Shown here: piece by piece, positions 9,538-62,795 of the stretch
How the letters are laid out: the number at the start of each line of letters is the position of its first letter
How positions within the stretch are numbered: the stretch's first letter is position 1
NCBI GenBank assembly: GCA_016206155.1
Contig: JACQSC010000010.1
Location: forward strand, 8,073 to 72,072
Direction: 5' to 3'
Origin: Candidatus Uhrbacteria bacterium
GTDB taxonomy: Bacteria; Patescibacteriota; Patescibacteriia; JACQRZ01
Length of the DNA: 64,000 bases
Notes under the pieces: generated by a model
The model's input: only the letters and a program-made list of their open reading frames with translations
What the model was told of the DNA's origin: nothing
Databases searched by the model: none
Made by a program: the position numbers and the translations under genes

Positions 9538-9556
9538 TAGCAGAGGTGGGACTCCC
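9538..9556 (-). repeat. Direct repeat of the tRNA-Met 3' end (tatagcagaggtgggactc)
   Basis: A 19-bp copy of 9646-9664 lies 94 bp downstream of the tRNA, an att-like duplication. Confidence 0.6.
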
Positions 9557-9649
9557 CCTCGCATCCGACTCGGGGCCGGGGTCTGCGCGCTCTCGACCCT
9601 TCTCATCCCTCACGACAGTCCCCGACTGTCGCTCTTATCAGATTTTATA

Positions 9650-9723
9650 TAGCAGAGGTGGGACTCGAACCCACGACCTTGGCCTTATGAAGACCCTGCT
9701 CTAACCGGCTGAGCTACTCTGCC
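9650..9723 (-). tRNA. tRNA-Met (anticodon CAT), elongator-type
   Basis: Minus strand GGCAGAG-TA-GCTC...GAGC-A-GGGTC-TTCATAA-GGCCA...GTGGG-TTCGAGT-CCCAC-CTCTGCT-A, with a G1·U72 wobble. Confidence 0.8.
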
Positions 9724-10466: not shown

Positions 10467-11471
10467 CTAGAAGGCATTGAACAATCGACCCACGAACAGA
10501 ACATAAAGGGCGAGGAAAAATCCCCCCTCCCAGAGATGCAGGCGACGAGAAATGCCTGAGATGATAAAAAGAAGCGTTGCCCCGGCCATGACCGGCACGC
10601 CTATTGCAAACGTTTGCGCGTCAACAGGAAGGGGTGAGAACAAGGCTGGCAATCCCACAACAACCAAGGCATTAAAAACATTTGATCCAAAGATGTTGCC
10701 AAGCGCCACCTCTGATTGCTTGCGCAACGCGGCGCGTGCCGACACCAAAAGCTCCGGCAATGACGTACCGACAGCGACTGCGGTGATCGCAATTATTCCC
10801 GGAGCGATATCAAGAAGCGCGGAGAGTGTAATAACCGATTCGATAAGGTACTTTGCGCCGATCGCAAGTCCGACAGCGCTGAGAAGCAAAACCAATAGAT
10901 CGACCGTGCGTATCTTTTGACGATTCTGAACAGGCGCTTCTTCGGTTGCAAGCGGCTGAGGCACTTTTCCCTTAAGGCGCATGATAACGCGCTCCATAAA
11001 GGTATCACTTCGCTCCTCCGTATGAAGAATGGAGTAGGCGAGATAGATGCCGTAGGTGAGAAGAAGAATGATCCCTTCTACAAAACTCACCCGCCCATCC
11101 CACACAACGACAAGAAGCAGTGACGTGCTTAACGCAAGCAGTGGCAAGTCGAGGTCAATGAGCTCCTTCGTAACAACCAGAACGCCGGCCACGATCGATG
11201 AGAAGCCAAGGATCAATAGAATGTTTGCGATATTGGACCCAACGGCATTTGCAACAACGACATCCGTCGCCCCCTGGAATACCGCCGAAAGGGACGAGAT
11301 CAGTTCCGGGAAGGATGTTCCAACCCCAACGATCAGTGCGCCGACAATAAATGGCGTGAGTCCCAGCGCAAGGCCAATCTTTTCAGCGCGTGTCAACAAA
11401 AGATCGGAGCTTTTGATCAAAAGCGCGAGAGAGATGCAAAAAATAACGATCCAAAAAATAAGTTGGGGCAT
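10467..11471 (-). CDS. Ca2+/Na+ antiporter (CaCA family, YrbG-like)
   Basis: Two alpha-repeats, GTSFPELISS / GTSLPELLVSA and GSNIANILLILG / GSNVFNALVVVG. The ORF track extends into tRNA-Leu; the start was reset to MPQLIFW. Confidence 0.8.
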   Translation of the reverse strand: MPQLIFWIVIFCISLALLIKSSDLLLTRAEKIGLALGLTPFIVGALIVGVGTSFPELISSLSAVFQGATDVVVANAVGSNIANILLILGFSSIVAGVLVVTKELIDLDLPLLALSTSLLLVVVWDGRVSFVEGIILLLTYGIYLAYSILHTEERSDTFMERVIMRLKGKVPQPLATEEAPVQNRQKIRTVDLLVLLLSAVGLAIGAKYLIESVITLSALLDIAPGIIAITAVAVGTSLPELLVSARAALRKQSEVALGNIFGSNVFNALVVVGLPALFSPLPVDAQTFAIGVPVMAGATLLFIISGISRRLHLWEGGFFLALYVLFVGRLFNAF

Positions 11472-11593: not shown

Positions 11594-11623
11594 TTGGTCA
11601 ATTGATTGCTTGTGTGCTATACT
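11594..11623 (+). promoter_or_regulatory. Extended -10 promoter (TGcTATACT) for the SIMPL gene
   Basis: ttggtc, an 18-nt spacer, then tgcTATACT. The divergent tRNA-Leu promoter (agtata at 11574-11579) sits in the same intergenic region. Confidence 0.5.
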
Positions 11624-14999: not shown

Positions 15000-15005
15000 G
15001 GTCTA

Positions 15006-15056
15006 CCATCCCGGCCGGAGTTTATCCCAAGTACCCACGAGGGGCCGGGATGACAG
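15006..15056. repeat. Palindromic element A, full copy: CCATCCCGGCCGGAGTTTATCCCAAGTACCCACGAGGGGCCGGGATGACAG
   Basis: Terminal inverted repeat catcccggcc/ggccgggatg, between the convergent HPS-like and SPFH genes. About 90% identical to an inverted copy at 62742-62795. Confidence 0.75.
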
Positions 15057-17224: not shown

Positions 17225-17262
17225 ACACTTGAATCAGGAATTATGAATCAGGAATCATGGGG
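17225..17262 (-). repeat. Heptamer leader (ATTCCTG/ATTCATA units) 5' of the M16 peptidase start
   Basis: Top gaatcaggaattatgaatcaggaatcatgg. On the minus strand (ATTCCTG)(ATTCATA)(ATTCCTG)(ATTCAAG)TGT-ATG. Confidence 0.65.
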
Positions 17263-17308
17263 GGTTATTCCAATAATTCATGACTCCTTATTCCTTATTC
17301 GCCGTTGT

Positions 17309-19784: not shown

Positions 19785-19832
19785 GGATATGCAGGGGTTA
19801 GGGTATAGGGTATAGGGTATAGGATAGAGCAC
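19785..19832 (-). repeat. Telomere-like heptamer array; coding-strand (CCCTATA)x3-CCCTAACCCC directly 5' of the pilT ATG
   Basis: Top gggttagggtatagggtatagggtatagga. Four or more GGG tracts on the template strand. Confidence 0.7.
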
Positions 19833-29898: not shown

Positions 29899-29937
29899 AA
29901 CAATTTCAACTTTCAACTTTCAGATTAAAGTATAGCA
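29899..29937 (-). promoter_or_regulatory. pilM promoter (TGcTATACT) and heptamer leader (GAAAGTT)x2-GAAATTG
   Basis: Top caatttcaactttcaactttcagattaaagtatagca. No SD. Confidence 0.6.
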
Positions 29938-34943: not shown

Positions 34944-35559
34944 CGAGAGCTTCCTGGCGCAAGTTGCTCCTGCCGTTGACACCGACGAAGAACAACAAGC
35001 GCAGGAGCGTGGTGGAGGTGAACAGCACGGCGCTCTTGTTCGCGCAATCTTCGCGCAACGGCTCGGGCAAAACAAGCGCGAGGAACAAAAACTGACCAAG
35101 GAGCTCGAACACTGGAAAGAGGAACTCGCGGCACAAGAACGAAAAAAAGGAACGTGTATGATACTCCTCATTGTTGCTATGGGCGATGATGTTATAGACG
35201 TTCTCGGCGCTCTTGTCAGCTTTGGCCTCTTAAGCTCAGTCACCTTTCCAATACCAGGCATTATCCGCATGATGGTTGCAATCCATGAACGGGAGCCGCG
35301 TCCAGATCGTCTTTTACGTACAGTCGCCGCAATGGCAATTGAAGCGATACCATTGCTCAATCTTCTTCCAACGACAACGATCAATCTGATCATTGACCTT
35401 ATCGAGGCGTCCTGGGATGGGGATCAAGCGAAAAATAAAGTTGAAGATCTTGAGAAAAAAATAAAGACATTGAAGCAAACAACTGGTGCGCAGACCAGAA
35501 ACGCCATGCAAATCATGCGCGGGATGTCCCAATCTGCCATGTCCCGCCGCGCGGCATAG
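34927..35559 (+). CDS. Hypothetical membrane/coiled-coil protein
   Basis: Start reset to MPKGVDESF; the upstream part of the track ORF overlaps clp out of frame. One TM plus coiled coil. Confidence 0.4.
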   Translation: MPKGVDESFLAQVAPAVDTDEEQQAQERGGGEQHGALVRAIFAQRLGQNKREEQKLTKELEHWKEELAAQERKKGTCMILLIVAMGDDVIDVLGALVSFGLLSSVTFPIPGIIRMMVAIHEREPRPDRLLRTVAAMAIEAIPLLNLLPTTTINLIIDLIEASWDGDQAKNKVEDLEKKIKTLKQTTGAQTRNAMQIMRGMSQSAMSRRAA

Positions 35560-35612
35560 AAATGGTGTCTGGCTCAGTTTTGTGAAGCAAATCTGTGCCT
35601 GACACCATTTCA
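35560..35612. repeat. Palindromic element B copy (GAAATGGTGTCtgg...CCtGACACCATTTC); likely terminator
   Basis: gaaatggtgtc / gacaccatttc 11-bp arms with a 27-nt loop immediately after a stop codon. Confidence 0.6.
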
Positions 35613-35636
35613 TTCACTAACCAAGTGTGCTATACT
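35608..35636 (+). promoter_or_regulatory. Extended -10 promoter (TGcTATACT) for the TolB-like gene
   Basis: tttcat-17-tgctatact, followed by the (CCCCTAA)x5 leader. Confidence 0.5.
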
Positions 35637-35648
35637 GCCTTCTAGAGG

Positions 35649-35690
35649 CCTAACCCCTAACCCCTAACCCCTAACCCCTAACCCCTATTC
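35649..35690 (+). repeat. (CCCCTAA)x5 telomere-like heptamer array in the 5' leader
   Basis: taacccctaacccctaacccctaacccctaacccctattccc ends 8 nt before the ATG at 35699. Confidence 0.8.
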
Positions 35691-36913: not shown

Positions 36914-36992
36914 TACCTCCTTGACTGATACGTCTGTCATCCCGCCGGTGAAGCATGCCACGGACACCGATCCGGGGAACTGGATCCAGCCT

Positions 36993-38216
36993 ATGCGTGA
37001 TAAAACTTTCTTTTACTGGGTTTTGGCTTTCGCGGGAATGACAATGCTTCTTGTGTTTTTAGTTTCGCCGAACATGGTAGCCGCCGCCTCTGTCGGCTCC
37101 CCAAGCGTGTCTGGGGGCAGCGGTGTTATTCCTGAATTTTTTTTTCAAATCCCAATCGGGGGGCTGCGGTCAGTGATTGTCTGTGAAACCGGAAGCGACG
37201 GTAAACTGGCATGTCCCGGCATTGCAAAGTATGTCCAAGTCGTCTATCGCTTCCTGGTTGGGTTTGCTGCCGTGCTTGCGGTCCTTGCGCTCACCTGGGG
37301 CGGCGTGCGTTGGCTCATGTCGGGAGGGGACAGTAGCGCCATCCAGGAAGCAAAAAAAATCATGGGCAATGCCCTTATCGGCCTCCTTCTTGCGCTGGGG
37401 TCGTACGCGCTGCTTTTTACGCTTGGCAAACAATTTGTTGAGTATAAACCGATTAGCATACGGCGTATACAACTCATAATTCTCAACATTACGCCGACAA
37501 CGATATCGGCTGGCGGAACAAGCGCCACATACGATGTCAACAGGTTTGCCGCGTATGGGTTCCCTCCCCCAAATACAGAGCCGGATAAAAGCGGGAAAAA
37601 AATGGAAGGAGAGGCTTTGCGACGGTGGAACAAGTACAAGGATTTGGCAATGAAGGCATCAGTGGCAACGAGGACCGATATAGGATTTATCGGCATGTGG
37701 CCATTACTCGAAAATAGTTTTGATACATTTATGGATAACTGCGCCGACACTGACCACAATCCCAACACTCCCTGTGCATCGTGGGGTAGCAATTGGCAGG
37801 TCGGACTTGGAATTCATCCTGGAAATATGCCGTGGGCGTATGAAGACGGAGTTAGTGCAATGTATGGCAATACAAATGATGCTACTGTCCAGAACATTGG
37901 CCAGAGTGTTCTTGATACCGCAAAAGCCGCGGGAAGGCCACTCACGCTCGTCAGCGATCCGTTCCCAACAATCTCACTCAATAGCACGATCGATGCGGCA
38001 AAAAACGGCGATCAAAACGCTCGGCTTCTTATTGCAACACTTTCAAAAGATCCTGCTCTTGGTCTTTATCTTGTTGGCGCCCACTTTGGCTCAAAAGACG
38101 TTGGCAAAGAGCCAAAGAGTGAAATGGCGACAAGAATGAACAATTGGCCGCCTGCGGGTGCGTATACCCCCCAACGGATCAGTAATCTCATCAAGTCGAT
38201 CTATGACGCGAAATAG
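36993..38216 (+). CDS. VirB2/TrbC-like pilin-domain protein with a ~250-aa C-terminal extension (paralog 1)
   Basis: IAKYVQVVYRFLVGFAAVLAVLALTWGGVRWLMSGGDSSAIQEAKKIMGNALIGLLLALGSYALLF two-helix pilin core. The start was reset to MRDKTFFYW; the upstream part of the track ORF is encoded by a degenerate element A copy. Confidence 0.6.
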   Translation: MRDKTFFYWVLAFAGMTMLLVFLVSPNMVAAASVGSPSVSGGSGVIPEFFFQIPIGGLRSVIVCETGSDGKLACPGIAKYVQVVYRFLVGFAAVLAVLALTWGGVRWLMSGGDSSAIQEAKKIMGNALIGLLLALGSYALLFTLGKQFVEYKPISIRRIQLIILNITPTTISAGGTSATYDVNRFAAYGFPPPNTEPDKSGKKMEGEALRRWNKYKDLAMKASVATRTDIGFIGMWPLLENSFDTFMDNCADTDHNPNTPCASWGSNWQVGLGIHPGNMPWAYEDGVSAMYGNTNDATVQNIGQSVLDTAKAAGRPLTLVSDPFPTISLNSTIDAAKNGDQNARLLIATLSKDPALGLYLVGAHFGSKDVGKEPKSEMATRMNNWPPAGAYTPQRISNLIKSIYDAK

Positions 38217-39698: not shown

Positions 39699-39701
39699 TT
39701 T

Positions 39702-39790
39702 CAGAAATGGTGCAGAAATGGCAGAAATGGTGTCACAGAAATGGGAAATGGTGGTAATGGGAAATGGTGGGAAATGGTGTCAGGTCTGGT
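39702..39790. repeat. Tandem cluster of element-B half-sites (CAGAAATGG / GGAAATGGTG repeats)
   Basis: cagaaatggtgcagaaatggcagaaatggtgtcacagaaatgggaaatggtggtaatgggaaatggtgggaaatggtgtcagg. Confidence 0.7.
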
Positions 39791-39809
39791 TTTCTATAGC
39801 CCACGAAGT

Positions 39810-39935
39810 AATAATGGGGTCAGAATATAATGGGGTCAGGAGCCATTAATTTAATGGCTCCTGACCCCATTATTCTGACCCCATTATTCCCCATTATTCC
39901 CATTATTACTCCTGACCCCATTATTCATTCACTTG
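39810..39935. repeat. Large near-perfect palindrome (~40-bp arms) plus CTGACCCCATTATT-type repeats between convergent genes
   Basis: aataatggggtcagaatataatggggtcaggagccattaa | ttaatggctcctgaccccattattctgaccccattatt, then cccattatt repeats. Likely a bidirectional terminator. Confidence 0.7.
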
Positions 39936-41918: not shown

Positions 41919-43343
41919 ATGGCTCTTTCTGTCTATATCTGCTCGAATTGCGATGCGCAAAGCCCGAAATGGGCAGGGCGGTGCTTGGAGTGCGGATCGT
42001 GGGGAACGCTTGCGCAAGGAATCGCAGATGAAAAAACCAGCGGAAAAAAATCAACCGCAGGCATAGCGCCAGCAGACGCAATTCCCTTCTCGCAGATTTC
42101 AAACGAACATGTCCCGCGCCGCTCCACCGGCATTGCCGAAGTTGATCAAGTTTTGGGTGGCGGTATCGTTCCGGGAAGTTTGATTTTACTTGGCGGAGAG
42201 CCGGGGATTGGGAAGAGTACGATTTTAGGACAGCTTGCGTGCTCAATTTCACAACAAAAAAACTCCGTCATCTATTGCTCTGGGGAGGAGTCGGCCCAGC
42301 AAGTCAAAATGCGGTTTGACAGGATCAAAGCACTGGATCCCGGCCTGCGCCGGGATGACAAAGGGAGCGGGGCTGACACCCTCCTCTTCATCGGTGAAAC
42401 CAACTGCGAAAAAATCTGCGGTGCGCTTCGTCATCATAAACCGACGCTCGCAATCGTTGACTCCATACAAACTATCGCCTCTTCCGATATTCCTTCAGAA
42501 GCGGGAAGTATCGCGCAAGTACGCGCATGCACAGTCAAACTCCTTGAAGTCGCAAAGCAGGAAAACATCCCAATCATTATTACCGGCCATGTCACAAAAG
42601 AAGGCGGTGTTGCCGGTCCCAAAACTCTTGAACATCTTGTTGACACAGTCCTCTATCTTGAGGGGGATGCAAGCCAGTATTTTCGCCTATTGAAAACAGT
42701 AAAAAATCGCTTTGGCTCGACAAATGAGATTGGCGTCTTTGAAATGACTGGCGCAGGGTTAGTTGAAGTAAAAAATCCGTCAGAGCTTTTTCTCTCGTCA
42801 GAAAACGAACACGCGGCAGGCACTGCAACGACTGCGGTTGTAGAAGGATCGCGCGCGTTTCTCGTTCCCATTCAGGCGCTGACGAGCAAGACATATTTCG
42901 GCTACCCCCAACGAAAAAGCATCGGCATAGACGCCAATCGCCTCGGACTTCTTGTCGCGGTGCTTTCAAAACGTCTTGGGGTTAATCTTGGCGATCAGGA
43001 TATTCATGTCAACGTTGTCGGAGGCCTCAGAATATCCGAGCCTGCCGCAGACCTCGCGGTATGCGCAAGTATTCTCTCCTCGTACAAAGGGAAAATGGTG
43101 TCAGGTACCATTTTTGAAGAAATGGAACCAGACACCATTTTACCAGACACCATTTTGCCGACTATTTTCTTTGGCGAGGTTGGCCTCACAGGAGAAGTGC
43201 GTCCCGTAAGTCACACTGAGAAGCGACTCAAGGAAGCGGAGAAGCTCGGCTTCAAGACTGCGTATATTCCGAAGCAGTCAAAAAAAATCTCAACAAGCAT
43301 TCAGCTTGTTGAGATTAAAAACGTCCGCGAGTTGGAAATTTAA
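41919..43343 (+). CDS. radA: DNA repair protein RadA/Sms (carries two in-frame palindromic-element insertions)
   Basis: CxxC zinc ribbon, GEPGIGKST Walker A, KNRFG motif, Lon-like C-terminal domain. Extra segments ALDPGLRRDDKGSG and KMVSGTIFEEMEPDTILPDTILP. Confidence 0.9.
   Translation: MALSVYICSNCDAQSPKWAGRCLECGSWGTLAQGIADEKTSGKKSTAGIAPADAIPFSQISNEHVPRRSTGIAEVDQVLGGGIVPGSLILLGGEPGIGKSTILGQLACSISQQKNSVIYCSGEESAQQVKMRFDRIKALDPGLRRDDKGSGADTLLFIGETNCEKICGALRHHKPTLAIVDSIQTIASSDIPSEAGSIAQVRACTVKLLEVAKQENIPIIITGHVTKEGGVAGPKTLEHLVDTVLYLEGDASQYFRLLKTVKNRFGSTNEIGVFEMTGAGLVEVKNPSELFLSSENEHAAGTATTAVVEGSRAFLVPIQALTSKTYFGYPQRKSIGIDANRLGLLVAVLSKRLGVNLGDQDIHVNVVGGLRISEPAADLAVCASILSSYKGKMVSGTIFEEMEPDTILPDTILPTIFFGEVGLTGEVRPVSHTEKRLKEAEKLGFKTAYIPKQSKKISTSIQLVEIKNVRELEI
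42335..42366. repeat. Element A mini-hairpin inside radA (GGATCCCGGCC-tgc-GCCGGGATGACAAAG), in frame, encoding DPGLRRDDK
   Basis: 11-bp inverted repeat with a 3-nt loop inside the coding sequence. The same peptide and sequence recur in the 911-aa gene at about 58771-58812. Confidence 0.75.
43092..43160. repeat. Element B inside radA, in frame (aaatggtgtcaggtaccattt...ccagacaccatttt x2)
   Basis: Encodes KMVSGTIFEEMEPDTILPDTILP; contains the GAAATGGTGTC/GACACCATTT palindrome. Confidence 0.75.
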
Positions 43344-43363: not shown

Positions 43364-45505
43364 TTACTTCCTCAACAGCCCGCCCCACTCAACAAGCGTA
43401 AAGCCATTGCGAGGGATGCTGCTGAGAGCCTGAGGCCGCATCACAACGGGCTTATCAAGCCCATCGAAGTCCAAGAATATGCGAATCACTGTGTCTGGCT
43501 TTGGCGTTACGGAAAGCGGCGCAAGCGCGTTCATCTCGCGCGTGCCAAGCCAACTCAAGCGCGTGTACGGTGTCGTTGGCATCTTTGACAGCCAGAATTC
43601 CAAGAAATCGGCAGCTTCTTTTTCATTAAGCCCAAGCTGTGCAAGGTGTTCTCGCAACGTGCCTTCAAGCTGATCTTTTGCAACGACGAATCCTCGTGTG
43701 ATGGTCGGATACTGCTTTCCGGTCCCCTCCCAGAACAGCGATGAGTATGTCCCGCTCGCATGCTGCAACGTTCCATCGGGATACGCGCGAACCTGCCAGC
43801 CATTTCCGTACGCCGGCTCAGAGATGCGGATCTCCGCATCAACCGCCACCGATACATCTGTTGGCGTTGTCGGATAGAGGTAGATGACGGGCTTGCCGCA
43901 TTCGACGGCAGGACCGTACGTTGTGTTATTGTATACGACATAGCGATTGAGCGCGTCTTTCACCATAATCACGGGCCGCTTTGCCAGAAACTGTTCATAG
44001 CTTAACTTCTTGCTTTCCCCGTCTGCATAATATGCGCCGCCCGACATCTCGTACAGCGCCCGCTCAACGGAATTGGCTCCTGCCTTAAACGCGTATACGG
44101 TTTTGTTCCCTGCTCCGGTGCCAATCTTAGTGATGTTAGAAATCGAAGCATCACCAAGCACTGGCGTGAACGATCCGCCACCACACCCACCGGTTGCAAG
44201 TTCCTCATACCCGTCGGTATTTTTTATGCCATTATTCCACTTAATGCTGGGAACGCCATCATCACCCCCGAGCTCATTCTTGGTATAATCGTAAGAATAT
44301 TCAATGCCATTGGGCGCCTTTAAGACAAACGTCTGCACGCGCAATGGTTCGATTGATCCTGGCCCATCAACGGAATACAGCGTGCCGTTTGCCGTACTTG
44401 CAACCTGCGTACGCGTTGTCTTAAATTCAGGTTCTGCGTAGCGAGAATCGCCGCGGTTCAATGTAACTCCTTTATACGCAATCGTATCAGGCGCTTTAAT
44501 GGATGGATAGAAGGTCGTGGTGTTAATCCTCACGTTCCGGTCAACGACACCGCCAAACACCTTTCCGGTATCCTTATCATACACCTCGGAGTTGCGGGCA
44601 ATAAATTCATAGTTCCCGCCTGCATCCAAAAAGTACGCGTGGTAATCCTCGAACGAAGGTCCGTCCGGAGGAATCGCTGCAAGCAAAACATCGCGTCCGT
44701 TATCGCTGCCTGTTTTGTAATAGGTGACCTCCTCCCCGTTTGTTTGCAGGAAGAGGTGTGGCGGATTAGATAGTTTTTGTGGCGTGGAAAGCCATGTTAC
44801 TCCTGACTCCGGCGTTTGTGGAGCAGAAAATATTTGACCAGATGTTGAAAAATAGGGCGCATATGCTTGCGGGATGTTGCTGATATCTCGATTGGTAATG
44901 CCAAGCCCGAGTTCGCGCATGATGTTAAACGCATCCGACGGTCGGCCGAGAAAATAGCGCCTGCTATCTACTGGATTGACATACCATGCCTCACCGTTTC
45001 GTTGAGTCTGAAGCAAAATTTTCCCATGAAGGCGCCGAGTAAGGCTCGTATCTATTGGTAAAGCTCCCGATCCAAGCGGATCAAGATTTTCTTGAAGCTC
45101 AACGTCATCGCGATATCCGTCATAATCCGTGTCAGCGGCCTGTGGATTCATGCCAAGAGTTTCCTCCAGATTGTTTGGAACACCATCCATGTCAGAATCA
45201 TTAAAACGACCGCCACCCATGGTATCGCGTGCGACGCCAACAGGAATTTTGCGCAAATCCGAATTTGAAATGCCAAGACCCAAGCTGTTCATGAGCTCAA
45301 ACGCGTCAGATGGCCGACCCATATATATGCGGCTTCCGGTGTCGGGCCTGATATACCACGCTTCGCCAAGACTCTCAACCTGAAGAACGATTCTTCCCTT
45401 GAGACGATCGGTCAATGTCGCGGCACTTGCCGACAACACAAACGCGCCAAGAACAACCGCTCCGAGGGTTATCAGTCCCGTTCCTAACAAAAGACGATTT
45501 TTCAT
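43364..45505 (-). CDS. Secreted protein with 2 copies of a novel ~55-aa repeat, TSP3-like Asp-rich Ca-binding repeats and a large C-terminal domain of unknown function
   Basis: Signal peptide. Repeats LKGRIVLQVESLGEAWYIRPDTGSRIYMGRPSDAFELMNSLGLGISNSDLRKIP and LHGKILLQTQRNGEAWYVNPVDSRRYFLGRPSDAFNIMRELGLGITNRDISNIP. DSDMDGVPN...DTDYDGYRDD. Confidence 0.7.
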   Translation of the reverse strand: MKNRLLLGTGLITLGAVVLGAFVLSASAATLTDRLKGRIVLQVESLGEAWYIRPDTGSRIYMGRPSDAFELMNSLGLGISNSDLRKIPVGVARDTMGGGRFNDSDMDGVPNNLEETLGMNPQAADTDYDGYRDDVELQENLDPLGSGALPIDTSLTRRLHGKILLQTQRNGEAWYVNPVDSRRYFLGRPSDAFNIMRELGLGITNRDISNIPQAYAPYFSTSGQIFSAPQTPESGVTWLSTPQKLSNPPHLFLQTNGEEVTYYKTGSDNGRDVLLAAIPPDGPSFEDYHAYFLDAGGNYEFIARNSEVYDKDTGKVFGGVVDRNVRINTTTFYPSIKAPDTIAYKGVTLNRGDSRYAEPEFKTTRTQVASTANGTLYSVDGPGSIEPLRVQTFVLKAPNGIEYSYDYTKNELGGDDGVPSIKWNNGIKNTDGYEELATGGCGGGSFTPVLGDASISNITKIGTGAGNKTVYAFKAGANSVERALYEMSGGAYYADGESKKLSYEQFLAKRPVIMVKDALNRYVVYNNTTYGPAVECGKPVIYLYPTTPTDVSVAVDAEIRISEPAYGNGWQVRAYPDGTLQHASGTYSSLFWEGTGKQYPTITRGFVVAKDQLEGTLREHLAQLGLNEKEAADFLEFWLSKMPTTPYTRLSWLGTREMNALAPLSVTPKPDTVIRIFLDFDGLDKPVVMRPQALSSIPRNGFTLVEWGGLLRK

Positions 45506-45565
45506 AATTCTTAATTCTTAATTCTTAATTCTTAATTCTTAATTCTTAATTCTATTAGTATAGCA
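45506..45565 (-). promoter_or_regulatory. Promoter (TGcTATACT) and (AGAATTA)x7 heptamer leader ending at the ATG
   Basis: Top ttcttaattcttaattcttaattcttaattcttaattcttaattctattagtatagca. No SD. Confidence 0.7.
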
Positions 45566-45567
45566 CA

Positions 45568-47349
45568 CTATTGGGATGCGGGAAAGTAGAAAACTGTCCC
45601 GAACGGCGTGTCCTGCCGATATGCCGCTATCGCGGAGGTTATTGTATCAATAATTTTCTTCTTGGAATCACCCTTCAGTAGGCGAGGCTTGGCACGCACG
45701 GATTCGTGCCCAAGCACCATGAGCGATAATCCCTTGTCGGTAAATTCGCCGGCGGCAATCAGGCCTTGCTGAGTTTCCTTTGAAAATGTTTGATCAAAGA
45801 CAAAATTACCAAGAGAGTAGACAATGGGCTTTTCTTTATACACGCCAATATCTTGAACAACATGCGGGTGTGCGCCAATAACGGCGTCAGCGCCAGCGTC
45901 AATCCACTGCTTTGCGAGCTGTTCTTGCTCTGGTGAGTGTTTCGGTTGATATTCGACACCCCAATGGGGAAACACAATGACTCGACTCGTGTCATCTTTC
46001 TTTAATTCCCGAATGGCGTCAATGACCGGCTGTTGTTTGGGATGCGACAGCACATTCACGCCGATAACAGTAAGCCGTAATCCCTGTCCTTGAAATGTGC
46101 AGACAGTCTGCTGGCTCACTTCTCGCGGATCGCCGATCGGACAGATGCTCTGTTTGCGCAGAAGTGTGCGGGTTGTCTCAAGGCCGTTTGCACCCTGATT
46201 TAAGGTATGATTGTTTGCCAAACTTACTGCTCGAAGCTTGAGAAAGCGGAGCGCGGACATACTTTGAGGAGGGAAATTAAATGACAAATTGTTTGGTTTT
46301 GGATTTGATCGCAGGATAGCAGCACTGATGGGCCCCTCCAGATTTGCTACCGGCGCATCAACGCCCCAGAAAACACGATTGCCAAAATCAGAAAAAAGTT
46401 TACGAAAAGAATCCTTCTCATACCAATAGCCGACAGCACGCCCAAGCATGATATCACCGGCAAACGCAAACGAAACCGACGGCTCCGGCACGACCGGCTC
46501 GCCCTCTTCGTACCAACCGAATACATGAGACGTACTCTCGGCGTCAGGATTACCAATAATAACACCGCTGTTAGTGTGATCAAATACGACAAAACGTTTC
46601 GTGTCGTGCCTATTCGCCCACGTTGCAAGAAATGACAGAACCGCGGGCGCGTCAACCTCCGCTTTTTGCATCAGCAATGAGCTGTCGCGATTCACAAGCG
46701 CGCGCAATGTCAACCGATCGTGAAGATCGGCAAGCGCAGCGGGTTGATAATGGGAAAAATCAACCGAGGCGACAACAAAACACGCGGGGCAGCGCCCATT
46801 GAGCGCATCAGCAAGCGCCGTAACTTCTTCTTGCGATGTTTCCATCTTGACGATGATTGGAACAATGCGCGCGTCCGGAAATGTTTGCTTTATATCACGA
46901 ACAATAAGGTAAATGCTGTGCTCGCCGTTGAAACTTCCTGGTTCATCGCGAACCGTTTTGTTGCTTGCAAGTGCGTCAATGACGCCGCCATCGGCCTCAA
47001 GCATGCCAACACTGGTGTTCCACGAGCGACGTGTTGTCTGAATGTTGGCAATCCCACGCTCAAAATGATTGGGGCCGATAAGGATGATTGTCTCCGGCTT
47101 CTCTACCTCGGCAAACCGCTCCCCAACAACCCGAAACATCTCCGTGCGCCGCTGTCCAACTATTTCATGATGCGGTACAACCAGAGCAGAAATACGCGAC
47201 GCAAAAGATGGCTGCACCGCCGTAGCGCGACTGGATTCGACTTGCGCTGGTGACGGCGGGACCCCAACATCAACGACTAACCCACCAGCAACACCCGCCG
47301 GTATCACGGTGCAGAGAAACACCATCTTCAGGACGGAGTGTATACGCAT
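45568..47349 (-). CDS. Secreted fusion protein: N-terminal Memo/AmmeMemoRadiSam-B-like domain plus C-terminal CapA (PGA-synthesis metallophosphatase) domain
   Basis: VPHH...GPNH...SVDFSHY (Memo-like), then GDIMLGR...ANNH...GAHPHV...GNFVFDQTF (CapA). Confidence 0.7.
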   Translation of the reverse strand: MRIHSVLKMVFLCTVIPAGVAGGLVVDVGVPPSPAQVESSRATAVQPSFASRISALVVPHHEIVGQRRTEMFRVVGERFAEVEKPETIILIGPNHFERGIANIQTTRRSWNTSVGMLEADGGVIDALASNKTVRDEPGSFNGEHSIYLIVRDIKQTFPDARIVPIIVKMETSQEEVTALADALNGRCPACFVVASVDFSHYQPAALADLHDRLTLRALVNRDSSLLMQKAEVDAPAVLSFLATWANRHDTKRFVVFDHTNSGVIIGNPDAESTSHVFGWYEEGEPVVPEPSVSFAFAGDIMLGRAVGYWYEKDSFRKLFSDFGNRVFWGVDAPVANLEGPISAAILRSNPKPNNLSFNFPPQSMSALRFLKLRAVSLANNHTLNQGANGLETTRTLLRKQSICPIGDPREVSQQTVCTFQGQGLRLTVIGVNVLSHPKQQPVIDAIRELKKDDTSRVIVFPHWGVEYQPKHSPEQEQLAKQWIDAGADAVIGAHPHVVQDIGVYKEKPIVYSLGNFVFDQTFSKETQQGLIAAGEFTDKGLSLMVLGHESVRAKPRLLKGDSKKKIIDTITSAIAAYRQDTPFGTVFYFPASQ

Positions 47350-49297: not shown

Positions 49298-51421
49298 CTA
49301 CTCGATATGCACGGTATCCTGGAATGTGGCGATTCGGTTTTTAAGTTCCGGGTGATCATTGAGCTTGGAATGATATGCCGCTGCATATTCTCGCGCTTTT
49401 ATAATCAACTCGATATCGGTAAGCGTCGCGATTTTCAAGCGCGGCATTCCTGATTGGCGCAGTCCCAAGATATCACCTTCTCCGCGCAATGCTAAATCTT
49501 TCTCTGCCAGCGCAAAGCCGTCATGTGACGATACAACGGCTTTGAGACGGCTGATTTCTTCTTTGTCCTCGTCGGTTGGTGCAAGAAAGCAGTACGACTG
49601 ATGGTCTGCCCGCCCGACTCGCCCGCGCAATTGATGCAAGCTCGCAAGCCCGAACCGCTCCGCGCCCTCGATGAAGACGATCGTCGCATTTGGCACATCG
49701 ATGCCAACCTCGACAACTGACGTTGTAACTAATATATCAATCTCATGGTCTCGAAATGCGGCCATCACCCGTTCTTTCTCCGCGGTTTTTATTCGGCCAT
49801 GGAGCATTTCGACTCTTTCGTGTCGAAACGGTCCATCGATTAATTTTTTATACTCTTCCTTTACCGACCGCACACCCAATATATCAGATTGATCAATGAT
49901 CGGACAGACAATAAATGCCTGGCGCCCTCGCCTCACGTGTTTTCGGATAAAATCGTATGTCCACGCGCGATAGGACTGCGGCACAATTTTTGTGATAATT
50001 TTTTTTCGCCCCTTTGGCAATGCGCGAATCGTGGAAATATCAAGGTCACCATACACCGTGAGCGCCAAGCTCCTCGGAATTGGCGTTGCCGTCATTGACA
50101 GGACGTGCGCAGTGATTGGCGCACTGTTTTTTTCTCTCAAGGCTTTCCGTTGATTGACGCCAAAGCGATGCTGCTCGTCTACAATCACAAACGCGAGGTT
50201 CTTGAATGAAATTTTTTCTTGAATCAACGCATGTGTCCCGATAACGATATCAACACCTCCATTTGCTATCGTATCTCGTAACTCGTAATCCTTGATTCTT
50301 AATTCTTGATTCTTAATTCTTAATTCGTGATGCTGTGCTGTGAAAAGCGCAATGCGAACATCAAAATCCGCAAACACCTTTTTTAATGTAGTGAAATGCT
50401 GCCGTGCAAGCACCTCCGTCGGCGCCATGAACGCGCACTGGTATCCTGCGTGCACAACGTTAAGCATTGCGAGGATAGCAACGATTGTCTTACCGGATCC
50501 GACATCACCCTGAAGAAGGCGATTCATTGGCGTCGCTTTCTGGATATCACAGAGAATCTCCCATGCAACGGTCTTCTGCTCTTTTGTCAACGTAAACGGA
50601 AGCGCCGCAATGAGCCGCTTCGTTATTTTTTGATCAAACGGTATGGCACATGAAGTCTGGGCGGCTAGCGATTCCTTGAGATTCTTGCAATAAAGTTGAA
50701 GTAAAAAAAGCTCCTCAAACTTAAAGCGCTGTTCGGCGATACAATATTCCTCCTGTTTTTCCGGAAAATGAATTGATAAAAGAGCGGTCGAAAGATCGGG
50801 ATATCGCTCGTGCGCGCGGATATCATCTGGAAGCCACTCTTTGACAAAGGGAAGACATCGATCAAGCGCCGTACGCATGAGGAGGCGAAATTGCTTTTGC
50901 GCAACGTTTGCGGGAAACGAATAGACGGGCACGAGCCGCGCCGTGTGAAGCGATGGAAATACGGTGTCAGGTATCCTGACCCCGTTTTCTGCGCCTGACC
51001 CCGTTTTCTCATATACGGGACTCACCATCTGGAGATCATAATAATGATCGCTCGTTTTTCCCGAAAGACTCAACCAGTCCCCGACTTGCAGGTTTTTTGT
51101 AAGAAAAGGTTGATTGAACCATACGATCTTGATGCTCCCGCTTGCGTCCGAAACCAATGCTTCGGTGACGATCATCCGCGAACGTCGAGAGCGGCGATTG
51201 GCGATCATATCGATCCGCCCCCGAATTGTTGCTGTTATCTGGGTGCGCAGGTCTGCGATTGGAAGCACGAGGGAAAAATCGTCAAATCGTCGCGGAAAAT
51301 AAAAAATGAGATCCTCGCAGGTCTCAATACCAAGTGGCTTTAGTTTTTTTTCCAATGCCTTTCCTGTTCGGCCTAAGCTCGCGAGAGGTTGCGCAAGAGG
51401 ATTCATAAGTTGATTCACCAT
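49298..51421 (-). CDS. recG: ATP-dependent DNA helicase RecG (carries in-frame repeat insertions)
   Basis: Wedge domain, GDVGSGKT Walker A, DEQHRFG and the TRG-like C-terminus. Insertions HELRIKNQELRIKDYELRD and KTGSGAENGVRIPDTV. Confidence 0.9.
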   Translation of the reverse strand: MVNQLMNPLAQPLASLGRTGKALEKKLKPLGIETCEDLIFYFPRRFDDFSLVLPIADLRTQITATIRGRIDMIANRRSRRSRMIVTEALVSDASGSIKIVWFNQPFLTKNLQVGDWLSLSGKTSDHYYDLQMVSPVYEKTGSGAENGVRIPDTVFPSLHTARLVPVYSFPANVAQKQFRLLMRTALDRCLPFVKEWLPDDIRAHERYPDLSTALLSIHFPEKQEEYCIAEQRFKFEELFLLQLYCKNLKESLAAQTSCAIPFDQKITKRLIAALPFTLTKEQKTVAWEILCDIQKATPMNRLLQGDVGSGKTIVAILAMLNVVHAGYQCAFMAPTEVLARQHFTTLKKVFADFDVRIALFTAQHHELRIKNQELRIKDYELRDTIANGGVDIVIGTHALIQEKISFKNLAFVIVDEQHRFGVNQRKALREKNSAPITAHVLSMTATPIPRSLALTVYGDLDISTIRALPKGRKKIITKIVPQSYRAWTYDFIRKHVRRGRQAFIVCPIIDQSDILGVRSVKEEYKKLIDGPFRHERVEMLHGRIKTAEKERVMAAFRDHEIDILVTTSVVEVGIDVPNATIVFIEGAERFGLASLHQLRGRVGRADHQSYCFLAPTDEDKEEISRLKAVVSSHDGFALAEKDLALRGEGDILGLRQSGMPRLKIATLTDIELIIKAREYAAAYHSKLNDHPELKNRIATFQDTVHIE
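50281..50330. repeat. Heptamer array (cgtaatc/cttgatt/cttaatt units) inside recG, in frame, encoding ELRIKNQELRIKDYELRD
   Basis: Top actcgtaatccttgattcttaattcttgattcttaattcttaattcgtga. Confidence 0.75.
50961..51012. repeat. Element C (CCTGACCCCGTTTTCT x2 with a GGTGTCAGG palindrome arm) inside recG, in frame
   Basis: ggtgtcaggtatcctgaccccgttttctgcgcctgaccccgttttctc encodes KTGSGAENGVRIPDTV. Confidence 0.7.
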
Positions 51422-53975: not shown

Positions 53976-54012
53976 GGATTAGGGCTTAGGGTTTAGGGTT
54001 TAGGGTTTAGGA
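53976..54012 (-). repeat. Telomere-like heptamer array; coding strand (CCTAAAC)x3-CCCTAAGCCCTAATCC directly 5' of the ATG
   Basis: Top gattagggcttagggtttagggtttagggtttagg (a TTTAGGG-type repeat on the template strand). Confidence 0.75.
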
Positions 54013-55903: not shown

Positions 55904-56061
55904 TTCGTAACTCGTAATCCGTAATCCGTAATTATTTTTGATTTTCGATTGAACTAATAAGCCCGTTAATAAGCTGCATAACCTCTTTTGATTATTCTCC
56001 AAGTTCTTTGCACTGTTCCTTGTACAAGTTACGAGTTACGGATTACGGATTACGAGTTACG
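55904..56061. repeat. Inverted pair of heptamer arrays (CGTAACT/CGTAATC units, ~28 bp each) flanking a 93-bp spacer
   Basis: Left cgtaactcgtaatccgtaatccgtaatt (55904-55935). Right ttacgagttacggattacggattacgagttacg (56029-56061). 27 of 28 positions are complementary. The left array is the VirB4 leader; the right array encodes the C-terminus and stop of the upstream gene. Confidence 0.75.
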
Positions 56062-56770: not shown

Positions 56771-56797
56771 ATTACGAGTTACGAGTTACGAGTTACG
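56771..56797. repeat. Heptamer array (TTACGAG)x3 that overlaps the stop of the 56779 gene and forms the leader of the 56043 gene
   Basis: attacgagttacgagttacgagttacg. On the minus strand it reads ...GAC GTA ACT CGT AAC TCG TAA (DVTRNS-stop). Confidence 0.75.
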
Positions 56798-57225: not shown

Positions 57226-57264
57226 GAGAATTAAGAATGACGAATTAAGAATTACGAATGATTG
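57226..57264. repeat. Heptamer array (AGAATTA/CGAATTA-type) that forms the leader of the 56779 gene and encodes the IRNS-stop tail of the 57245 gene
   Basis: gagaattaagaatgacgaattaagaattacgaatgattg. On the minus strand it reads ATT CGT AAT TCT TAA. Confidence 0.7.
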
Positions 57265-57640
57265 ATTTTGTGCCCCTGATCAGACCATTGATAATTTTAC
57301 TTACCACTATGGTAAGATCAGCGATTTTCTTAAAGGTGCTTCTCTCGACATAGCCTATATCCCTTGCTATCAACAATTGATTCTGAATTTCCGTAAGCGA
57401 CCCAAGGGCCATTGAGTAAAACTGCGCCTTCTCTTTATAGGAATTTCTGCTGAAGCCTTCAGCAATATTTGACGTTATGGAAACAGCTGCCCTACGCAAT
57501 TGATTTGTTAAACCGAACTGTTCATCTTTTGGAAACGTTGTTGTAATTTTGTATATCTCTAAAACGAGAGCGTGCCCTTCTTGCCAGGCCTTGAGATCTG
57601 TAAATGATTGTATCTTGCTTCTGCTTAATTCTTGATTCAT
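57245..57640 (-). CDS. Four-helix-bundle protein (23S rRNA IVS protein / Avd-like family)
   Basis: LKAWQEGHALVLEIYKITTTFPKDEQFGLTNQLRRAAVSITSNIAEG is characteristic of the TIGR02436-type family. Confidence 0.7.
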   Translation of the reverse strand: MNQELSRSKIQSFTDLKAWQEGHALVLEIYKITTTFPKDEQFGLTNQLRRAAVSITSNIAEGFSRNSYKEKAQFYSMALGSLTEIQNQLLIARDIGYVERSTFKKIADLTIVVSKIINGLIRGTKSIIRNS

Positions 57641-57672
57641 AATTCTTAATTCTTCATTGCAGACAGTATACC
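57641..57672 (-). promoter_or_regulatory. Promoter (gGTATACT) and AGAATTA heptamer leader of the four-helix-bundle gene
   Basis: Minus strand TATACTGTCTGCAATGAAGAATTAAGAATT-ATG. Confidence 0.6.
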
Positions 57673-57695: not shown

Positions 57696-60431
57696 CTAGT
57701 GCCGTAACTTCTCGTTCACATCAAGGAGCGCGTCGAATTCTTCTGGTGTAAGATACTCTTTCCCTGCGCTTTTCCTCTCTTCAATAAGTTTCGTCATGTC
57801 CTGTCCAAAATTCTGTTGGCCAATCTCAAGATAGAGCTGGTAGGCAGGGCTCTCCTTCCATGCGTTTATCGCCTCGGCTTTTTTGCTCAGGGATTCTTTT
57901 CCCAGCGCGTTAATTTTTTCCAAAATTTTCTGTGTCGCCGCATCAGGATCCTGTGAAATGCGGCGGAGGTCCTTGATGGTCAATGCGCGCAGTTCATCAA
58001 TGGGTCCGACAAGGCGCACCGGCGCTTTCACGTCCGGTATTGGTTTTTTGTCCGCGCCAACGGCAGTTTTTGCCACCGCTCCTCCGCCAGATTCTGAAGC
58101 TTTTGCCGTAACCACAATGGGAATATCCTTTGCATCTTCAAGATGTTCGGGCACCTTCACCGGCTCGGAAATGGTGTCTGGCTCGGAAATGGTGTCTGGT
58201 TTCATTTCTCCGGAAATGATACCTGACACCATTTCCGGAGCTAACTCAGGAGTTTCCTCAGGAGTTTTTTCTGGAACAACAGGCGTCTCTTCTTTCTTTT
58301 TTCCGTTCGCCTTTTTCTCGACTTTCTCAACAATAGTCGGCACCCCTCCCACTTCCTTAATAACCATCTTCGGAGGAGTGGGGTCTGGCTCTGACCCCGT
58401 TCCCACATACTCCCCACTCCTTCCTTCAGCAACAGCTTGTGCCGCTCGTGCCGCCTCCTGCAAGAGCTTCTCAGCATCCTCTGAGGACAAACCAGTGCCG
58501 CCTTCAGCGGTTGGCGCGCACAATCGATCTTTTGTGTCTATCGCATTGCGGATGTTGCGCAGCAGCGTCACGATAATTTTCTTCACCCGCTCTCGATTGT
58601 CGTCAGTAAGGATTGCACCCGCCTTGTTAGTCACCGCATCGGCAACCGCCATAAAATCAATTCCCGTTCCCACTGCCTGATTCTTAATTCGTAATTCTTG
58701 ATTCTGCATTGTCGGCGCCTCAACAATAGTAATCGTCGGTGTCGGTACCGCTGGGGTCTGGCTTAATCCTGCTTTGTCATCCCGAACCTCCTCTTTGTCA
58801 TCCCGGCGAAGGCCGGGATCCATTTGTCCCTGACCCCGTTCTGCGCTTTCAACGACCGTCTCCTCTTCCTGTGAAAGAGCGTCAGACATTATTTTCATAA
58901 CTCTCTCGCGTGTGTTCTCCTCTTCTTCTGAGAGTTGAAACGGTATGACCATCCAATCTATACGTGGCAATTCCAATAAACTGTTTGGAAACCCTTTGAG
59001 AACGAGATAAGTATCCAAGAGTTTGCGCAGCGCCTCGCGATCGCGCTCAACGAGTTTTGGCGCGGCGGCGCTTTGTGTCAGATATTTCGCAAGCGTGAGA
59101 GACGATCCCTCGCCTTTGGAAAATCCCAAAAAGTCCTTGATCCAGTTGCCAACCGTCGGATCTGCCCCGTTCACCTGCTCTGTTCCAATCTTCTGCTCGT
59201 TTTTATACATCGCATTAAGGAGCTCCTGCGCATACCCCTCGATCTCGTTGAGAAGTTGCAAAATCGTCGTGTTCAATGCGGGAAGAATAGAGTCATTCCC
59301 ATACAGATGGAATACAAGCGTGGTTTGGAAAAGATGCGCCATGTCATGCCTCTCTTTTTCAACATCCTTTATGGTATAGCTCTCGTATATCTTTTGGGCA
59401 ACATCAATGAATATCTTCTGCGCCGCTATATTCAATCGGCTTCCTTGAACGTCCTTGTCGGGGTTGCCGCCAAGCGATCGATACAATTCCCGCTGATCGC
59501 CAAAATGATAGGGGAACAGAAGAACGACATTCAGAAAAATCTCACGAGCGCAAAGCTGATCTCTTTCATCCTTAAATGCACAAATGCTGTCGATTTCAGC
59601 CGCAAGATTCTCAACAGGAAGTTCTTTGGTCCACACATTGAGAATGGTCTCATTAATACGGCCAACCTGTTCATCAGAGAGCTGAAACGCTTCCTTTAAC
59701 TGGCTAAGAAAGATGTCGTAGTCGGCTGTGAGATTTACTTCTTGGATATAGTCAGGGATTGAGAAAAGTTTTTTGGCGTCAGGAGAAAACGCAATCTTTG
59801 CGGCAAACTTTTTCACCGCTTCCTGGCCATGATCTCTGAGGTCAAGCGCAATCGCGTGACAAGCATCTTTCATCGCGTCAATCCCTTCGCGTGCGCGGCG
59901 TAACATGACATGGGGTGTGGCTATGTCTGTAACGTGCTCACGAACTGCGGCAAAAATATCTTCATTATGAATGCTTGTTGCGGGAATAGAGAGAAGAATA
60001 TCAGCCGCAAAGTCCGGATTCTTGCACGCATCGGCAATGAGCGCAGTTGTTGCCGCGCGCCGTAATGGATCAGAAAGCGCCCACGTTCCGTCATCGGCGA
60101 GCGCGAGAAAGCGCCCGGTCAAACCATGCGCGCGGCCGAGCATGCGAACCGCACACACAAAGCCATTCGTATAGTTGTTTGGTTCACGCTCTGCGAATCG
60201 AATTCCTGCTTCGAGCTGGGGCAAAAGCGCTTCCATCTGCACCTTTAGTGCATCACGAACATCCGGCTTTATAAACACAAGCCTGTCAAACGCAAGTAGC
60301 GCCTTTGCACTATCGTTTTGCCCGACCAAATATAAGGCGCCAACCAACACCCAACTCACATCCTTGACGGTAATGTTGTCGAGGTTGAATATCCCCTGTT
60401 CTATAAATTGTGCGAGCTGTTCTGAAGTCAT
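57696..60431 (-). CDS. Large hypothetical protein (911 aa) in the T4SS-like cluster; carries elements A and B, an ELRIKNQ heptamer insertion and a Pro/Glu/Lys-rich low-complexity region
   Basis: No catalytic motif recognised. In-frame segments QMDPGLRRDDKEEVRDDKAGL, MVSGIISGEMKPDTISEPDTISEP and MQNQELRIKNQ. Confidence 0.6.
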   Translation of the reverse strand: MTSEQLAQFIEQGIFNLDNITVKDVSWVLVGALYLVGQNDSAKALLAFDRLVFIKPDVRDALKVQMEALLPQLEAGIRFAEREPNNYTNGFVCAVRMLGRAHGLTGRFLALADDGTWALSDPLRRAATTALIADACKNPDFAADILLSIPATSIHNEDIFAAVREHVTDIATPHVMLRRAREGIDAMKDACHAIALDLRDHGQEAVKKFAAKIAFSPDAKKLFSIPDYIQEVNLTADYDIFLSQLKEAFQLSDEQVGRINETILNVWTKELPVENLAAEIDSICAFKDERDQLCAREIFLNVVLLFPYHFGDQRELYRSLGGNPDKDVQGSRLNIAAQKIFIDVAQKIYESYTIKDVEKERHDMAHLFQTTLVFHLYGNDSILPALNTTILQLLNEIEGYAQELLNAMYKNEQKIGTEQVNGADPTVGNWIKDFLGFSKGEGSSLTLAKYLTQSAAAPKLVERDREALRKLLDTYLVLKGFPNSLLELPRIDWMVIPFQLSEEEENTRERVMKIMSDALSQEEETVVESAERGQGQMDPGLRRDDKEEVRDDKAGLSQTPAVPTPTITIVEAPTMQNQELRIKNQAVGTGIDFMAVADAVTNKAGAILTDDNRERVKKIIVTLLRNIRNAIDTKDRLCAPTAEGGTGLSSEDAEKLLQEAARAAQAVAEGRSGEYVGTGSEPDPTPPKMVIKEVGGVPTIVEKVEKKANGKKKEETPVVPEKTPEETPELAPEMVSGIISGEMKPDTISEPDTISEPVKVPEHLEDAKDIPIVVTAKASESGGGAVAKTAVGADKKPIPDVKAPVRLVGPIDELRALTIKDLRRISQDPDAATQKILEKINALGKESLSKKAEAINAWKESPAYQLYLEIGQQNFGQDMTKLIEERKSAGKEYLTPEEFDALLDVNEKLRH
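58163..58238. repeat. Element B inside the 911-aa gene (ggctcggaaatggtgtctgg x2 ... cctgacaccatttccgg), in frame
   Basis: Encodes MVSGIISGEMKPDTISEPDTISEP. Followed by the tandem ctcaggagttt x2. Confidence 0.7.
58771..58835. repeat. Element A derivative inside the 911-aa gene (ctttgtcatcccg x2 ... gccgggatcc, plus ctgaccccgtt), in frame
   Basis: tttgtcatcccgaacctcctctttgtcatcccggcgaaggccgggatccatttgtccctgaccccgtt. Confidence 0.7.
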
Positions 60432-62672: not shown

Positions 62673-62741
62673 GAAACGCGACCATGAGTGATAGCTCTAG
62701 TATACCATGCGCAAGAAAGAAAAACAGTGGACGACTAAGAA

Positions 62742-62795
62742 TTGTCATCCCGGTCCCTCGGGGGTACTCGGGATAAACTCCGGCCGGGATCCAGG
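62742..62795. repeat. Palindromic element A, second full copy (inverted orientation relative to 15006-15056)
   Basis: ttgtcatcccggtccctcgggggtactcgggataaactccggccgggatccagg. Its reverse complement is about 90% identical to the copy at 15006-15056. Confidence 0.75.

Follow-up and report, generated by a model that had tools for sequence, protein, structure and literature searches.

Short palindromic repeats recur in a 64,000-nucleotide stretch of DNA (the window; contig JACQSC010000010.1, assembly GCA_016206155.1) from Candidatus Uhrbacteria, a groundwater bacterium of the candidate phyla radiation (CPR, Patescibacteria) represented by a metagenome-assembled genome (MAG). They lie between genes and also, without breaking the reading frame, inside radA, recG and a gene for a protein of 911 residues. 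They are probably dispersed repeats of the repetitive extragenic palindrome (REP) type, the genic copies of which would be translated as extra loop residues. Element A has the sequence features of a known REP family, while elements B and C are variants of a second one. In related genomes the same protein loops are empty, differently filled, or filled by the same unit in the opposite orientation. The original prediction, made from the sequence of the window, had described repeats of this sort within and between genes. The sequences that it quoted are present in radA, recG and the 911-residue gene, and the nucleotide repeats do recur at intergenic sites and in other genes.

Host genes and in-frame elements

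The window has a G+C content of 49.6%. The genes that host the elements are the following.

41919-43343, + strand: radA, 474 residues, intact, with two elements inside; E = 1e-114 to the solved RadA 5LKM
49298-51421, - strand: recG, 707 residues, intact; E = 5e-140 to RecG 1GM5
57696-60431, - strand: open reading frame (ORF) of 911 residues with several elements in its central region

All host ORFs are unbroken, and the catalytic and conserved motifs of RadA and RecG are kept. The RadA sequence is a 100% match to a protein named RadA from Candidatus Uhrbacteria. For the 911-residue ORF the Pfam scan returned no match, and one orthologue was found, on contig L211, with 65% identity. The following units are carried in genes.

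42334-42360, - strand: element A in radA; on the + strand 42333-42360 reads CTGG-ATCCCGGC-CTGC-GCCGGGAT-GACA, the loop is GCAG, and the unit encodes DPGLRRDDK
43092-43156, unstranded: element B in radA, made up of an imperfect palindrome of 50 nt (43092-43141) and a 15-nt tandem copy of the right arm; encodes MVSGTIFEEMEPDTILPDTIL
50955-51010, - strand: element C in recG, in a wedge-domain loop, with the left arm AAAACGGGGTCAGG twice and the right arm CCTGACACCGT once; encodes KTGSGAENGVRIPDTVF
50269-50331, - strand: tandem heptamer repeats in frame in recG, of AAGAATT and CGTAACT types; encode HELRIKNQELRIKDYELR
58162-58240, unstranded: element B in the 911-residue gene, left-right-right as in radA, with an 18-nt duplication of the right arm
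58380-58401, unstranded: mini C-type hairpin in the 911-residue gene, GGGGTC-AGAGCCA-GACCCC
58678-58705, - strand: heptamer segment in the 911-residue gene, giving QNQELRIKNQ; not in L211
58753-58840, unstranded: nested composite in the 911-residue gene, with a full A unit at 58796-58822 (TGTC to CCA, + strand) and a half A unit at 58772-58789
36935-37043, + strand: A units of a T4SS-pilin-like gene, a decayed unit in the leader (36935-36990) and a half unit TTCGCGGGAATGACA that gives AFAGMT in the N-terminal region

The in-frame heptamer segments, which give ELRIKNQ peptides in recG (50269-50331) and the 911-residue gene (58678-58705), and the half A unit of the pilin-like gene (37024-37043) had been missed by the original prediction.

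Extra residues in RadA, RecG and the 911-residue protein

The relatives used for comparison are L001 (GCA_016209345.1), L002, L122, L123, L124, L125 and L211, of which L122, L123 and L211 are Logan contigs. RadA was aligned with 24 close orthologues and with 116 CPR orthologues, and a codon alignment was made of seven related radA genes. Against S. pneumoniae RadA (5LKM), with the conserved motifs aligned, the window protein is longer by 11 residues at site 1 (DPGLRRDDK...) and by 17 at site 2 (MVSG...PDTILP). Both segments are missing from almost all of the 24 and 116 orthologues; element A itself is lacking in the radA genes of L002 and L124 and in most of the 116. At site 2, element B takes the place of an ancestral PLEKG loop. 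Element C adds 12 residues to the wedge-domain loop of RecG relative to L002, L124 and L125, where the site is empty, and at the same site L001 has a different C-type element of 55 nt. The recG heptamer segment is common to the window and L001 and displaces a different ancestral segment.

The orthologue of the 911-residue protein in L211 lacks the whole block of A units nested in C arms, the heptamer segment and the B element. At these positions or next to them it has other inserts of repeat type (LVSGTISEEIEPDT, SEAQQSRGIS, RGRTGSDPTP and ARDDKGNVRDD). The site of element B is occupied in L211 by a different C-type sequence, and beside the same EPDPTPP a full B-type element stands where the window has the mini C-type hairpin. 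The extra segments of all three proteins are thus lineage-specific, and those of RadA and RecG fall between conserved motifs, both as had been proposed.

Translation of the inserts, for example as DPGLRRDDK or MVSGTIFEEMEPDT, would produce segments that are predicted to be coil. In an AlphaFold2 model both RadA inserts are coil between regular elements, with a predicted local distance difference test score (pLDDT) below 50; this model, built from 24 sequences, is poor (mean pLDDT 64) and was used for secondary structure and for confidence at the inserts. By our reading of the sequences, five of the six frames through a unit are free of stops in both families.

A further length excess is seen in a MurB-like ORF of 430 residues (7641-8933), in which the MurB_C match spans 137 residues on a profile of 99 positions. 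This suggests another lineage-specific insert.

Element A and the CGTC-tagged REPs

Read from its tag, element A consists of TGTC, ATCCCGGC, GCAG or GAAG, GCCGGGAT and CCA, which amounts to 27 nt or nine codons. CGTC-tagged REPs are defined by a CGTC tag (often TGTC), a stem of 8-9 bp that begins with A-T, a loop of 4-5 nt and a CCA tail (PMC3733652). The stem of element A is 8 bp long and opens with complementary A-T at its first two positions, and the loop is 4 nt. Perfect, GC-rich hairpins with AT-first stems were searched for in about 140 kb of Uhrbacteria DNA, the flanks being left unconstrained. A TGTC or CGTC tag was found on nine of the 13 hairpins, including both genic copies of the window, and a CCA tail (CCAG or CCAT) behind seven of these nine. 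Element A is assigned to CGTC family 1 because its tag, AT-first stem, loop and tail match the published definition, and by every sequence feature it is a member. That family has been equated with dRS3 of Neisseria and RPE-6 of Rickettsia conorii (Di Nocera, De Gregorio & Rocco 2013, PMC3733652), so that the likeness to Rickettsia palindromic elements seen in the original prediction is closer than was then thought.

Within the 64 kb, element A is represented by two full genic copies, two long intergenic copies and several half or decayed units; further copies are present in L001, L122 and L124. The long forms retain the stem of the short units around an interior of 26 nt. The termini GTCATCCCGGCC...GGCCGGGATGAC, by which element A had been defined earlier, belong to this long form; the genic copies are 27-nt units. 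In the composite of the 911-residue gene, the A units are enclosed by a left arm (58829-58840) and a right arm (58753-58761) of element C. Taken alone, the 11-mer of element A is weakly enriched, with five matches against 1.1 expected. The intergenic copies of both families are the following.

15004-15056, - strand: long element A between convergent genes, with TGTC, a ATCCCGGCC stem and a 26-nt interior
62740-62795, + strand: second long element A, placed between the stop of the preceding gene and a promoter-like TGGTATACT
35559-35611, unstranded: B hairpin that begins at the TAG stop of a small upstream ORF, with a promoter-like GTGTGCTATACT behind it
39699-39930, unstranded: cluster that separates convergent genes; partial left arms of B form a ladder, which is followed by a nested C palindrome with partial right arms in tandem

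In the related Uhrbacteria contig L124, two opposed CGTC-type units form a dimer (6805-6879) within the first ~40 codons of an ORF of 354 residues, and more single CGTC-type units occur in intergenic spacers.

Elements B and C

The original prediction distinguished three families, and two are found here. B and C differ mainly by T or G in GG(T/G)GTCAGG, and their arms pair together in recG. On these sequence grounds they are treated as one family of imperfect palindromes of ~50 nt, with GG(T/G)GTCAGG arms and flanks of A- and T-runs. The arms are often tandemly duplicated in part, in the order left-right-right in radA and the 911-residue gene and left-left-right in recG. With up to two mismatches allowed, CCTGACACCATTT has 17 matches in the window against 1.3 expected, a number that none of 100 shuffles reached. 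A regular expression for the arms gave 22 matches against 3.5 in shuffles, or ~0.34 arms per kb; nearly all are paired, in about six clusters over the 64 kb. No B or C arms were found in 27 kb of the close relatives L124, L125 and L122.

Folded as RNA, element B of radA reaches -29.9 kcal/mol (z = -6.9), that of the 911-residue gene -38.7 kcal/mol (z = -7.6) and the intergenic hairpin at 35559-35611 -31.4 kcal/mol (z = -7.4). The cluster at 39699-39930, in which the nested C palindrome has perfect arms of 23 bp, folds at -63.9 kcal/mol (z = -12). B and C do not fit the CGTC definition: their stems are imperfect and 22 bp long, their flanks are A- and T-runs, and TGTC lies inside the stem.

Turnover of the elements among relatives

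Three loops of RadA, namely site 1, site 2 and one behind the Walker-A helix, are empty or differently filled according to lineage among the seven radA genes. The fillings are CGTC-type units in either orientation, B/C-type hairpins and a GGGAACAGCCACC-type palindrome, and occupancy differs across L001, L002, L122, L123 and L125. Inserts of at least six residues are present in the post-Walker-A loop of 19 of the 116 CPR orthologues, and several carry peptides that we take to be typical REP translations.

L001 contains a C-type element of 55 nt that is identical, base for base, in radA and recG, a recent duplication within one genome. Orientation has also changed in place. The 50-nt B unit of radA in the window and the unit that L001 has at this site (11162-11211) are exact reverse complements, and over the flanking 90 nt identity is 73% and 86%. 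By our estimate, the chance of 50 unchanged bases at ~20% divergence is ~1e-5. The peptides encoded by the two B orientations differ, and therefore constraint or recency applies at the level of nucleotides. The A units at site 1 are likewise in opposite orientations in the window and L001, with the same GCAG loop.

Positions of the intergenic copies

The intergenic copies lie at the 3' ends of genes. That at 35559-35611 starts at a stop codon, that at 62740-62795 comes after one, and those at 39699-39930 and 15004-15056 lie between convergent genes. Their position suggests a role at transcript ends.

A hairpin of another kind is found near the 3' end of radA, in the last ~20 codons (43286-43316). 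It has 12-13 perfect base pairs, is followed on the minus strand by TTTTTT, and is kept in L001 (11341-11371), L002 (4077-4107) and L122 (1827-1857), in the last with both arms changed in pairs (AATTTCGACGAG / CTCGTCGAAATT). The convergent gene for a protein of 713 residues probably has its terminator here.

Proposed origin and alternative explanations

In the explanation put forward here, the usual copies would lie immediately 3' of genes and form very stable hairpins at transcript ends. New copies would arise repeatedly, and some would land inside genes, where their survival would need a net length change that is a multiple of three, a stop-free frame through the unit and a loop site that tolerates extra residues. 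The survivors would be translated as probably disordered loop residues in RadA, RecG and the 911-residue protein. A hairpin- or single-strand-directed process is favoured for the copying step. Element A may be moved by a trans-acting HUH-type transposase at the TGTC tag, and B/C could spread by template switching at A-rich, hairpin-prone sites.

Several observations weigh against this explanation. A Pfam scan of the ~40 ORFs of the window identified housekeeping, type IV pilus, ComF-like and TraG-like genes and no transposase, integrase or RAYT-like gene. No target-site duplications are seen where filled and empty sites are compared, and several events replace a short ancestral loop instead of being clean insertions. 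The radA B copy, identical to that of L001, is only ~80% like its paralogous copy in the 911-residue gene of the window; from the sequences, this identity would fit an old conserved insert as well as recent mobility. In a simple scan for terminators the B/C and A hairpins were not called, because their T-runs are short (3-4 nt). Copy counts, finally, are limited to the 64-kb window and the contigs of relatives. In addition, the ancestral RadA site 2 (AAACCCCTTGAAAAAGGGGTC) was already a small arm-like hairpin, and therefore local growth or hairpin-targeted copying may contribute.

Carried further, this last point would have the elements grow in situ from small hairpins, by slippage or template switching, with no movement between loci. 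Such growth would account for the 7-bp hairpin of the ancestral site 2, the GAAAAAGGGGTC of which resembles the arm GAAAATGGGGTC, for the ladders of partial arms at 39699-39930 and the duplicated right arms in radA and the 911-residue gene, and for events that are replacements. It would not, however, place an identical 55-nt element in two unrelated genes of L001 or the same families at intergenic sites and in unrelated genes, and the conserved tag and tail of the A units would not be created repeatedly in this way. Growth in situ is thus an unlikely source of the repeats.

Between genomes with flanks that differ by 14-27%, all 50 nt of the B unit in radA are conserved, loop and mismatches included. 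Both repair genes of the window carry elements, and type IV pilus and ComF-like genes are nearby. The arms could accordingly be a selected signal, such as DNA-uptake, protein-binding or RNA-processing sites, with coding copies tolerated or favoured in genome-maintenance genes. The DNA uptake sequences (DUS) of Neisseria and the uptake signal sequences (USS) of Haemophilus reportedly occur in many cases as inverted pairs at terminators and favour genome-maintenance genes. Their density is roughly one per kb. The high density and many single copies of such sequences are not seen here: the 22 arms of the one 64-kb window fall below that density and almost never stand singly, occurring as hairpin pairs in clusters. 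Orientation flips without loss, and the arms are missing from the 27 kb of relatives. A selected signal is therefore very unlikely. That the inserts are assembly chimeras, or the host genes pseudogenes being lost, can be dismissed even for a MAG, with repeats and palindromes as classic sources of misassembly, since the same insert sites occur in independent assemblies from different samples (L001, GCA_016209345.1; Logan L122, L123 and L211) and the host ORFs are intact with conserved catalytic motifs.

Relation to known repeats

The original prediction saw novelty in the small size of the units and in their presence in core repair genes. REPs of 20-40 bp that lie wholly inside ORFs were described in 2013, more than half of them as dimers or groups that encode 20-30 residues (PMC3733652). 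Many are in uvrA, uvrB, uvrD, recBCD, dnaE and ligase genes, and the recB genes of two Xanthomonas species have different REPs at about the same site (PMC3733652). Small intragenic REPs, often in replication or repair genes, are already known, and most of the claimed novelty is gone. New within this known kind are the lineage that hosts the elements, the B/C family, the way in which the same RadA loops are filled again and again, the exact flip and the nesting of A within C.

CGTC REPs have been reported from five phyla, mostly from Alphaproteobacteria, and in the published view have no dedicated transposase (PMC3733652). Members of CGTC family 1 lie mostly 3' of ORFs, with some inside ORFs, including DNA-repair genes, singly or as dimers, and the copies of element A in the 64-kb window are divided between the two kinds of site. 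Neither the family nor element A has a known dedicated transposase, which for element A refers to the scan of the window. Element A differs from the published family in its CPR host, in its long forms with a 26-nt interior and in its nesting between the arms of another family. The re-occupation of the same protein loops in sister lineages is a further difference.

RPE-1 palindromes of Rickettsia are said to be inserted in frame in genes for conserved proteins, compatible with the fold and translated. They and the elements of the window are alike as in-frame palindromes inside conserved genes. RPE-1 units, however, are Rickettsia-specific and ~100-150 bp long, while those of the window are 27-70 nt and, apart from the CGTC class, unrelated in sequence; on size they are not RPE-1. 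GTAG REPs and REPINs are also short hairpins, often in inverted pairs, that lie 3' of genes and occasionally inside them (PMC3733652). They have a GTAG tag and RAYT tyrosine transposases, whereas no GTAG tag adjoins any A, B or C unit and no RAYT is present among the ~40 ORFs of the window. Membership in the GTAG/RAYT group was rejected on the missing tag.

Miniature transposable elements with inverted repeats (MITEs) such as Correia/NEMIS and ERIC are similarly non-autonomous, have inverted ends and are sometimes found inside ORFs. The units described here are much smaller than a typical MITE, and the window contains no parent insertion sequence. The missing target-site duplications led to rejection of the MITE reading. 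The SDR elements of Nostoc (~21-27 nt) reportedly insert into hairpins among heptameric STRR repeats. The likeness is one of anatomy only, namely tiny hairpin units, nested insertion and many heptamer arrays; phylum and sequences differ, and in the window many copies would be translated inside core genes. A literature search found no such elements for CPR bacteria, with Patescibacteria absent from a 2025 REP survey, and a search on the arm sequences themselves returned nothing relevant.

Palindromes with similar ends in other phyla

A hairpin pattern with B/C ends was scanned over one genome per species and matched at least 118 loci (L003-L120); by our estimate, ~70-100 matches would be due to chance. 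The matches listed are from Burkholderiales, Myxococcales, Bacilli, Clostridia, Omnitrophota, Planctomycetota, Nomurabacteria and others, and no Uhrbacteria are among them. Genomes with multiple loci among the matches listed include the Myxococcales MAG CAZKRI01 (six) and Massilia sp. Root418 (three). Most of the matches listed are long perfect palindromes that end in (A)AATGG(G/T)GTCAGG, with inner stems specific to the lineage (GGTTACTTTGCAC in Burkholderiales, GGTCCAATTT in the Myxococcales MAG and GGGTTAGTT in Massilia). Stems of at least 18 bp make up 59% of the matches listed and 18% of those to a control palindrome with two bases swapped, a qualitative comparison only, as the 85 control matches, mostly short and terminator-like, come from a different database of metagenome contigs.

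A strict hairpin pattern for the B subfamily had no match in metagenome contigs. In viral contigs the real pattern had one match and a shuffled-arm control none, too few to compare. All-against-all BLAST of the ORFs that neighbour the 118 hairpins listed revealed no recurrent transposase, only generic families. It is doubtful, though conceivable, that B/C belong to a widespread unnamed class of palindromes that share the (A)AATGG(G/T)GTCAGG terminus across phyla, and this is a lead, not a result. If true, a common mechanism of copying or recognition would act on this terminus across bacteria, and the flips and loop re-occupation would be its footprint.

The control scan repeatedly found an unrelated element of 39-41 nt, such as ATGGTGCTAGGCGCACCGTCGAAAGTCAGCCTAGCACCAT, flanked by ATAAAA and GCAACC. 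It is present in many unrelated metagenome contigs (L126, L128, L132, L137, L141, L147, L150, L157, L158, L160 and L162) and resembles a segment of a structured RNA or a repeat that is conserved.

Other features of the window

The 12-mer GTGTGCTATACT, which contains an extended -10-like TGnTATACT, recurs upstream of genes at 11612-11623, 35626-35637 and 45557-45568, and probably marks a promoter type of the organism. At least 12 tandem heptamer arrays stand directly upstream of start codons, between a promoter-like TATACT and ATG, at the following positions.

1100-1144, 17230-17300, 19795-19823, 29904-29922, 35649-35687, 45501-45553
53979-54011, 55913-55932, 56023-56061, 56772-56797, 57228-57261, 57624-57658

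Their units include AATTAAG, CCTAACC, TTAGGGT, TTACGAG and GGGTATA and are mostly G-poor on the mRNA. The arrays occupy the place expected of a Shine-Dalgarno sequence, and the same units are found in frame in recG and the 911-residue gene. They resemble the STRR heptamers of cyanobacteria. Finally, a direct repeat of 21 nt, TATATAGCAGAGGTGGGACTC, occurs at 9539-9559 and 9646-9666, ~107 nt apart, and holds the 3' end of a tRNA-Met gene (9650-9723, - strand). It looks like the attachment-site scar of an integration event.

Implications

These elements extend intragenic REPs to the candidate phyla radiation, the genomes of which are tiny and assumed to be streamlined. On this explanation, the peptides DPGLRRDDK, MVSG..PDTI and ELRIKNQ and others like them in CPR proteins derive from repeats and are not features of domains. 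Orthologues become longer through them, and alignments, domain calls and phylogenies can be misled. The insertion sites would provide a natural map of tolerant loops, three in RadA and one in the wedge domain of RecG. To the bias, published but unexplained, that intragenic REPs show for replication and repair genes, two more genes of DNA repair are added. The clade also includes close relatives in which sites of one gene are empty, filled, flipped or filled by another element, and offers material for the study of how REPs spread when no transposase is known for them.

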